In this document: positions 7,364-9,112 of the stretch, piece after piece
How positions within the stretch are numbered: the first letter of the stretch is position 1
Layout of the letters: each line of letters opens with the position of its first letter
Source: Saccostrea echinata
Lineage: Eukaryota
Direction: 5' to 3'
DNA: 64,000 nt
Assembly: GCF_033153115.1 (NCBI RefSeq)
Contig: NW_026889778.1
Location: forward strand, 23,250,001-23,314,000
Made by a program: the position numbers and the translations under genes
The notes under the pieces: generated by a model
The model's input: only the letters and a program-made list of their open reading frames with translations
Told to the model about the DNA's origin: nothing
Databases searched by the model: none

Positions 7364-9112
7364 GAGCCATTCTCTGTAATGACTTGAACTTTTATATAGG
7401 AGTTGTGGCACGCATAGTTTCAGAATTTCTCCAAACTCTCTATGATAAAAGTGTTTGATACCGTAAACTCAAATCAGGCAAAAATTGGTTGCTACGTGTC
7501 ATGGTTACCATGGCAACATGTCCTAAAGTTTGAAAAATGGCATTTTTCAACATGTTCAGAGTCCAACAGTTAACGTTTGCAGCAAAGCAAACAAATGGCA
7601 ATGACTGTTTCTGAAAGTTGAAGGCCTGGTGTCTTAAATGCATGATAAACATGTTTGGTAAATCAACTATTACATACGTTACTATGGAAACAAAGTATTC
7701 AAAAGTAATAATTTTGTTCATTTAATTTTATAAATTCGTACACTTAAGAATAACAACAATTATAGGTTGACATGCAAGCAAATAATAGAGAAGAGATCCT
7801 TGCAACATATACCAAGGACCAAATATGATTTTTCTTATAGGTTGGCAATGGTTGCCATGGTTTTAATACCACGAAGGGATTTTAAATTTACTCTCTTAGT
7901 GTTTTAATCTTATCCTATCTTTTTAAAAAGCATTTTTCTATATAACTTATGATCAATTTTTAAAGGCATTGGTGTGACCCTAATTTTCACATTTCAAAAA
8001 ATTCAATTTCAATTCTTTAAATAGTGCGTTGCTATGGAAATAAGGTGAAAAAACATGCATAAAAATCTGAAAAATACTCTGTTTCCTTGGATACGTACCG
8101 TTGTATGTAGATTCCCAAAACTTTTAATTAATGATTGATATACATGTATGTGAACAACTAACCTGACTTTCAATTTTGACTATCACCAAATCTCTAACTG
8201 GATGCAAAAAGCTGGGTTATACGGTCTAATATTGACAAAAAATTAACAAAATCGAACATTTTCTCTTCTTGGTAACCATAGCAACAGTGTTGTATTTTTC
8301 AACAACCTTTAACAATATATGATATTCAACTTTAGTTCTATGAGATAAGTATATTCAAGGTGATTCAAATAATATTTTTCTTGATTAAAAGGTTAGTAAA
8401 TTCCTAGAGCAGCAAAAAAATATCACTTTAAACAACTAGTACATTGTTTCCATGGTTACACTGCAAAGTAACAATCAATCTCAATTTTTCTTATGTTGTG
8501 GGTGTTGCAAGATCCTAAGGATGCAAATGTGCCAGTCATGAATTTTATTGTTTTTCCTCACGATAGTAGCATTAACCCAATCATAGCAACAGATTTTGCA
8601 TGGTGACACTCTGTTACCATGGCAACCATGAAAGTTATTTTTAGAATAATATTGCCAATACCTAATTACATGAGGTCAAATATTTTTCATTGTTTTTCTT
8701 ACGTTGTTGATTGAGTTTGATCATCTAACATCTATCATTTGTGACTATAGAGCGTTTTTCAGCATTTTTCAGCATCTAAAATGTATTCCAAATGTACCCA
8801 TGGTTACCACTTACTTAGAGATAAATTCTAAATAGTTTCTTTATAGCATAAGTGGCAACAAGGTGTCTTGTTTTTGGGAGAATGGTTTGTTTGTTTTTCT
8901 TAGTCTTCATTAAGGCTTAATAAAGATTTAAAGTAGCTGAAAATCTCAATTTTTTCAACTTTTCTGGCTGTTACCATGGCAACCAAGACACATAGCAACG
9001 AAATTTTATTTGATATATGTTTCTGGTGTCAAGTTGTAATAATGGGCAAAGTTTCATCAAAGTCGGTGACCATGCGTGGCAAAGTAGTTTAAGTGGTTAC
9101 AGAGAATCGCTA
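7364..9112. mobile_element. TTAA-flanked non-autonomous foldback DNA transposon (Kolobok-like, family uncertain) with periodic GTTNCCATGGNAAC palindromes
   Basis: TTAA at 7360-7363 and 9113-9116; imperfect terminal inverted repeats GAGCCATTCTCTGTAATGACTTGAACT / AGTTTAAGTGGTTACAGAGAATCGCTA; mirrored internal motifs at 7487-7517 and 8970-9000. Confidence 0.75.

Follow-up and report, generated by a model that had tools for sequence, protein, structure and literature searches.

The window, that is, the whole 64-kb stretch of Saccostrea echinata DNA that was analysed, holds at 7364..9112 a non-autonomous DNA transposon of 1,749 bp, likely of Sola2 type, as judged from contig depth, sharp ends and a terminal signature. 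TTAA tetranucleotides at 7360..7363 and 9113..9116 stand on either side and would represent a 4-bp target-site duplication. The element is bounded by imperfect terminal inverted repeats (TIRs), the left one of ~170 bp (7364..7537, plus strand) and the right one at 8951..9112 (minus strand), each with ATTCTC at nucleotides 6-11 when read inward. A probable last coding exon of a host gene, with 31 codons after a CAG acceptor, follows outside the element (9424..9519, plus strand); the element is therefore probably intronic. This exon gave no protein family match and no solved relative. The element itself shows no coding capacity, its single frame of at least 90 amino acids having 93, and Rfam returned no match at E≤0.5 over 7000-9600, so that a structured RNA gene is not supported. 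Elsewhere in the window are a caveolin exon (24681-25061, minus strand), exons of the CLCA family (58186-63367, plus strand) and two isolated X-box-like sites 482 bp apart (27614 and 28096) in a gene region at 25.9-30 kb. The caveolin and CLCA exons mark the window as animal DNA, and its repeat families look oyster-like. Upstream of the element, an adjacent tandem array at 4920-6736, with units of 127-128 and 146 bp and probably part of a Helentron-type element ending near 7219, carries one AGGTCAnnnTGACCT palindrome per unit (15 sites, six of them exact, for 1.8 expected and none elsewhere in the window). This palindrome is the oestrogen-response-element consensus; by its sequence, the array may be a second transposon ladder of host-factor sites.

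Contigs from four of 11 listed sequencing runs (X1-X3 and X10) were compared with positions 7100-9400. Summed contig depth, which is not a copy number, is 81-2,262 inside the element versus 0-11 in the unique flanks for X1-X3, and 4-84 versus 0-4 for X10. On the left side, the match ends at 7360 in four X2 and five X10 contigs with dissimilar flanks; on the right side, loose ends lie behind 9117 in two X1 contigs. The contrast in depth and the loose ends at both boundaries together show a dispersed family with sharp ends. This bears out the mobile element that a sequence-only reading had suspected: it is multicopy and sharply bounded, with TTAA on either side. The sole joint spanning the element (7304-9262, X10, depth 2) contains 33 other letters and thus is not a clean empty site. 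A short derivative of ~320 bp (joint 7516-8977, X2 and X3) keeps both ends up to the first and tenth of the motifs described below, with 28 other bases between them. No second full copy was found within the window.

The same reading had placed in the element ten 14-nt palindromes resembling the X-box of RFX transcription factors, at nucleosome-like spacing and separated by diverged DNA. All ten are present where it located them, and these three features hold. Sites were scored by their mismatches to the X-box consensus GTNRCCNNRGYAAC on the better strand. Four are perfect, namely site 1 within the left TIR (7504..7517), sites 6 (8272..8285) and 8 (8613..8626), and site 10 within the right TIR (8970..8983); sites 2 (7678..7691) and 7 (8446..8459) have one mismatch; sites 3 (7851..7864), 4 (8028..8041), 5 (8081..8094) and 9 (8794..8807) have two, the maximum observed. 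Under the degenerate definition GTNRCCN0-3RGYAAC (Emery 1996, as quoted in the excerpted text of PMC3414849), 10/10 sites are likewise within two mismatches and four are exact, for a background of 29 such sites in the other 62,251 bp of the window (0.81 per element length). The sites form a left ladder of four, closed by site 4, and a right ladder of six, with site 5 innermost, joined at a 53-bp junction. The successive gaps are 174, 173, 177, 53, 191, 174, 167, 181 and 176 bp. Eight of nine thus lie at 167-191 bp, a nucleosome-sized period, and random placement of the sites never gave eight of nine gaps in the range 160-195 (0/200,000). The 191-bp gap between sites 5 and 6 corresponds to ~180 bp in other family copies, because ~11 bp near 8123-8149 are missing from them (sequencing-run contigs). 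Median identity between spacers is 0.64, as against 0.67 in shuffles and 0.79 for the motifs; the spacers have decayed to shuffle level while the motif was kept, and TRF detected no tandem array in the element.

A mirror arrangement of the two arms and a foldback structure had also been claimed. The mirror is real for the outer segments (72% identity over ~170 bp, z=12.9), whereas the three inner pairs of mirrored spacers score -4, -17 and -11.5 versus a background of -17.2 ± 11.9. The term foldback is therefore too strong, and this class was rejected for an element that has neither long inverted arms over most of its length nor the tandem repeats that build them. As a separate observation, a true foldback structure of 4.4 kb, broken up by other repeats, occurs at 44705-49079; it has mariner-like ends and very long inverted arms, 93-98% complementary over ~1 kb.

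By its terminal sequences, the element probably belongs to the Sola2 group. Bao et al. (2009) reportedly described Sola2 ends as 5'-GRG...CYC-3' with a 4-bp duplication. The left end GAG, the presumed AT-rich 4-bp duplication and ATTCTC at nucleotides 6-11 agree with Sola2; the right end, in contrast, is TAG when read inward and not GRG (one base off in this copy), and a transposase is lacking. Ends of Sola2, Kolobok and Sola1 came from supplement file 24 of PMC10294476, a curated library of bivalve elements (first 400 characters per sequence), and were compared by eye. Among the 14 Sola2 consensus sequences in these excerpts, three have ATTCTC at the same offset, a fourth has it after three extra leading bases and two have a near form. 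It is absent from the beginnings of the 14 Kolobok entries compared (of ~42) and of 8/8 Sola1 entries. Kolobok and Academ, the first candidates for the ends, were dropped in favour of Sola2. Kolobok is defined by a TTAA duplication and 5'-RR...YY-3' termini (excerpt of PMC9587614). TTAA flanks the element and its left GA fits, but its right end reads ...CTA in this copy, not YY. The end of Xenopus XKol-A1 contains AGCGATTCT (table 5 of PMC6004289, in the portion available), a 9-mer shared with the right end of the element, as would suit Kolobok or the T2-MITEs; the match is, however, one base out of register with TTAA, and the bivalve Kolobok ends compared are unlike those of the element. The KolobokP supplements gave scattered single matches only. 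No Sola signature appears in the excerpts of PMC5199201, PMC8634313 and PMC5753468, and no description of an X-box ladder in Sola2 was found in the searchable literature.

The identity of the motif as an X-box is supported by the consensus, by a published palindrome and by its degeneracy. The commonest forms in the ladders correspond to the palindromic X-box (PMC3414849) and to the RFX4 SELEX motif (PMC5449588), as printed in the accessible parts of both papers. Position 4 is G, A or T, with C only two times in 718, and position 6 takes either C or T. Complementarity between positions 4 and 11 is seen in 124/359 sites (0.35 versus 0.46 expected) and, among unselected sites, in 25/82 (0.30 versus 0.47 expected). 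As far as sequence tells, variation of the motif follows the degeneracy of RFX, i.e. recognition by a protein, and not hairpin symmetry. A cruciform or hairpin origin was rejected, perfect symmetry being under-represented and the folding z-score only -2.4 (20 shuffles). RFX genes occur in all animals (PMC5838959, in part), and functional X-boxes are typically single and near the start site, according to the excerpts of PMC5838959 and PMC3414849. The sites of the element resemble such ciliary and other promoter X-boxes in sequence, symmetry and tolerated variants (same portions of PMC3414849 and PMC5449588). They differ in forming a periodic ladder of ten in mobile, probably intronic DNA, instead of one site near the transcription start.

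Ladders of this kind exist in other DNA. A scan pattern of three motifs 159-189 bp apart found, in 36 of 64 parts of a set of metagenome contigs, at least 118 stretches (116 loci), for an estimated ~220 overall. The 116 loci fall into 42 sequence clusters of animal-type DNA. They are mostly AT-rich, and some lie beside GPCR, NHL, zinc-finger or LINE open reading frames (ORFs). Viral contigs gave no match with the two-motif and three-motif patterns, and 596 Gb of prokaryote genomes gave two, one in an animal-type transposon contig (L117) and one a chance bacterial match (L118). The window element has no homology with the 118 ladder loci except for motif-centred matches. The longest arrays reach 18 sites over 3 kb (L100 and L018). 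Four full 14-mers had no match, and five 10-mers had two, in the opening 400 nt of the 762 DDE elements curated from bivalves, the only portion considered; the ladder is therefore not a general feature of 5' ends. At 21 loci (e.g. L010, L028, L045, L049 and L108), the X-box palindrome occurs in short tandem units of 19-83 bp, too short for one nucleosome each.

For the window element, the preferred reading, held with a probability of about one half, is that of a likely chromatin scaffold, in which candidate sites for host RFX stand ~175 bp apart with one predicted nucleosome per spacer. The period was examined in 97 sequences including the window element, the 21 short-period loci and L118 being left out. 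Spacings peak near 154, 165, 175 and 185 bp, i.e. in steps of a helical turn. Relative to a jittered null, quantisation is seen for all 353 spacings and for the 199 lengths that are distinct within clusters (p≤0.0003 each), and with one value per homology cluster (p=0.016, n=97); it is weaker in subgroups (p=0.046, 0.43 and 0.22 for n=58, 10 and 30). Gaps between neighbours outside the scan match lie at 140-200 bp in 112 of 159 cases, which shows that the scan pattern did not create the period; 14 more lie at 286-367 bp, and one large family dominates this unselected set. Spacings of 165 and 175 bp alternate within single arrays (L002, L009, L041 and L100), and only five of the element's own eight long gaps coincide with a peak of the wider set. 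Helical repeats of 9.7, 10.3 and 10.9 bp fit equally, and the absolute helical phase is not fixed. A nucleosome array, with 147 bp plus a linker growing in helical steps, agrees with the four peaks, weakly so in the subgroups. Since the spacings group around the length of a nucleosome with its linker and advance by helical turns, the period is best read as set by nucleosomes. The 153-155 class leaves less than 147 bp between motifs, too short for a full core. Yeast linkers follow 10n+5 (PMC2522279, excerpt), whereas the peaks of the ladders imply linkers near 10n+8. In humans, positioned nucleosomes border the RFX5 sites, with a phasing that depends in large part on nearby CTCF (PMC4809547, in part).

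The same spacings bear on a second possibility, in which host RFX, or a host protein of the same specificity, reads the sites, and their spacing would be needed for phasing between proteins, for looping or for silencing, and not for one nucleosome per spacer. The peaks are one helical turn apart, and the unit lengths of 11/17 short-period repeat families are near multiples of 10.3 bp (p=0.008, the families not all being independent), as phasing or looping would predict. The sites of one Sola1-like element, described below, stand at the double period. The lack of a positioning signal in the dinucleotides points the same way: no 10-bp periodicity phased to the motif was found, AA/TT and WW being at null level and SS giving p=0.075. 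On the other hand, long gaps concentrate at 140-200 bp and at the double, not at every helical multiple, and the flanks beside the motif are AT-rich, as fits a linker position (AA/TT 0.268 versus 0.226 in mid-spacer, n=99). Phasing or looping is thus judged unlikely, and a nucleosome in each spacer remains the preferred account of the period.

The nature of the carriers bears on who reads the sites. A prokaryote genome record (G001, loci L117-L140) is contaminated with animal-type transposon contigs, i.e. host repeats. It gave 167 Academ-like matches, in at least 118 contigs among the 150 rows listed, and Sola-, CACTA- and P-like elements. One locus (L128) is a full Academ-like element with 140-bp TIRs, an ORF of 1,610 amino acids and a weak DUF6589 match (E=0.017), beyond which the Academ label is our assumption; it bears the motif in both arms, with sites 169 and 181 bp apart. 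Another (L130) is Sola1-like, as assigned from DUF7869 relatives and ends like those of curated Sola1, and has three exact sites inside its TIRs, 360 and 361 bp apart. Two others (L124 and L129) encode hAT-fold transposases, with ladders ~2.2 kb 3' of the ORF and gaps of 155/181/163/187/164 and 152/169/159/208 bp, respectively. Single exact X-boxes lie near the ends of one P-like and one CACTA-like contig. Among the contigs listed, which may be incomplete, the exact site is present in 3/118 Academ-like, 2/5 Sola1-type and 2/2 hAT-fold contigs. Exact sites are enriched in the record as a whole (25 versus 3 in the control), whereas sites with up to one mismatch are not (96 versus 93). In the metagenome, L060 and L063 have in common a stretch that runs to a contig end and whose Sola2-like ends are thus only tentative, and the ladder of L063 is adjoined by a MULE/SWIM-like ORF that may belong to another element. 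That the sites occur patchily, and with unrelated transposases, speaks for a reader supplied by the host and for independent gains of the sites. As a side observation, the hAT-fold pair (L124 1254-3758 and L129 3552-6173) forms an unnamed transposase family, 62% identical, outside any Pfam family and with a 3' end common to both; its atlas neighbours are in sponges, molluscs and fungi. The termini of the window element led to no autonomous partner, a degenerate terminal pattern having no match in the metagenome contigs and the DNA of the element none in G001.

It had been considered from the outset that the likeness to X-boxes might be superficial and that the element's own transposase might bind the palindromes as subterminal sites. 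DNA transposons commonly bear such sites in several copies. The inverted repeats contain motifs 1 and 10, at distances of 140 and 129 bp from the ends, and the short derivative retains the ends precisely up to these two motifs. This alternative loses weight through the finding of the same motif and period in association with Sola1-like, Academ-like and hAT-fold transposases, which are unrelated; the scarcity of the exact site among the Academ-like contigs listed and the close fit to RFX degeneracy also speak against it. It is considered improbable, and a host protein remains the favoured reader.

How the ladders arose and persisted can be judged from their units. Of 16 other long arrays, most have a median spacer identity close to that of shuffles, with motif identities of 0.79-0.96. 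Several of these arrays still display recent unit duplications, with identities up to 0.96, which supports an origin by tandem duplication followed by decay of the spacers. A flank-anchored test on recent duplicates is mixed in outcome: 108/142 unselected homologous sites still have one mismatch or none. The mean identity of the motif is 0.82, not above the 0.84 of the flanks, because ~17 sites are lost or misaligned; the advantage of the motif in recent duplicates is no more than small. Across copies of the window element, the sequence-only reading would have motifs outlast spacers. In keeping with it, all of the 39 best-supported substitutions lie outside the motifs (p=0.039, among those listed, with 437 further rows); one subfamily, on the contrary, has a 1-bp deletion in motif 10.

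A neutral relic would need no reader: tandem units of 160-180 bp are frequent in bivalve transposons, and the palindrome would persist by hairpin repair or conversion. Such monomers predominate in oyster satellites and Helentron-borne repeats (PMC8268682, in the excerpt available), the neighbouring array at 4920-6736 also retains one palindrome per unit, and the advantage of the motif in recent duplicates is small. Against this stand the under-representation of perfect symmetry, the persistence of motif and unit length between spacers at shuffle level, and the recurrence of the same motif in dozens of unrelated spacer families. A relic of this sort is distinctly improbable, and selection for a protein-read motif at a nucleosomal period is preferred.

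The CENP-B box recurs, short and conserved, in units of nucleosome size that diverge in all else, and another host protein, for instance a CENP-B-like domesticated transposase, might bind the motif and mark the arrays, which reach 18 sites over 3 kb, as satellite-like chromatin; this is the least probable alternative, since the motif is that of the published palindromic X-box and RFX4 SELEX, the element is dispersed and short, and we know of no second protein with this specificity. In outline, the element and alpha satellite have in common a short candidate protein-binding box at nucleosome period in divergent units. They differ in the motif, in the likely reader, a transcription factor, and in the carrier, dispersed transposons with no demonstrated link to centromeres.

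For the scaffold favoured here, the following course of events is envisaged. A unit of ~175 bp would have been tandemly duplicated; the spacers would then have decayed, with selection among copies of the transposon preserving the motif and the length of the unit. A host protein, in the simplest case RFX, is predicted to read the sites, given that the motif is common to unrelated transposases, is missing from most Academ-like relatives and varies in accordance with RFX degeneracy. Nucleosomes would set the period, with predicted RFX dimers in the linker DNA and one nucleosome per spacer. In the weakest step, a regular accessible domain would make it easier for a transposase acting in trans to find the ends and bring them together in cells where RFX is abundant, as in the male germ line; RFX2 is active in spermatogenesis. 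Copies that keep motif and period would then be mobilised more often. The best reading of the carriers is that lineages of several superfamilies independently keep putative host-RFX sites, one per nucleosome repeat. It is tempting to go further and to propose that at least four superfamilies convergently evolved such a scaffold, in which RFX ladders would generate a phased open array in germ-line or ciliated cells and thereby promote mobilisation, but this remains a tentative view, more doubtful than not.

Transcription-factor sites in transposons are familiar, whether single or clustered. Nucleosome-sized repeats in oyster transposons are also known (PMC8268682, in part); new here are the spread over superfamilies, the spacing in helical steps and the test against hairpin maintenance. 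The Helentron-borne units of 160-180 bp of oysters (same excerpt) resemble those of the element in being nucleosome-sized and inside mobile DNA. They differ in that the element's units are unrecognisable save for one 14-bp motif, are negative in TRF and sit in a TIR carrier. In the open literature, subscription journals and Repbase entries aside, no paper on periodic X-box ladders in transposons was found. Searches combining RFX, X-box, transposable element and DNA transposon gave none, those for RFX with nucleosome terms nothing relevant, and papers printing the exact palindromes include none on transposons, by title or beginning of the abstract.

A motif held at nucleosome period and in helical-turn steps amid decayed spacers, in unrelated superfamilies, points to selection on the chromatin geometry of the mobile element itself. 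With the ladders it can be tested directly whether RFX acts as a barrier factor in nucleosome spacing, and they supply natural data on the quantisation of linker lengths beyond yeast. If the proposed reading is true, they would also keep a natural record of the repeat lengths that nucleosomes prefer. Each insertion would then drop a ready-made module of RFX sites and nucleosomes into the host genome, a possible route for the spread of RFX-responsive modules in ciliated marine animals.
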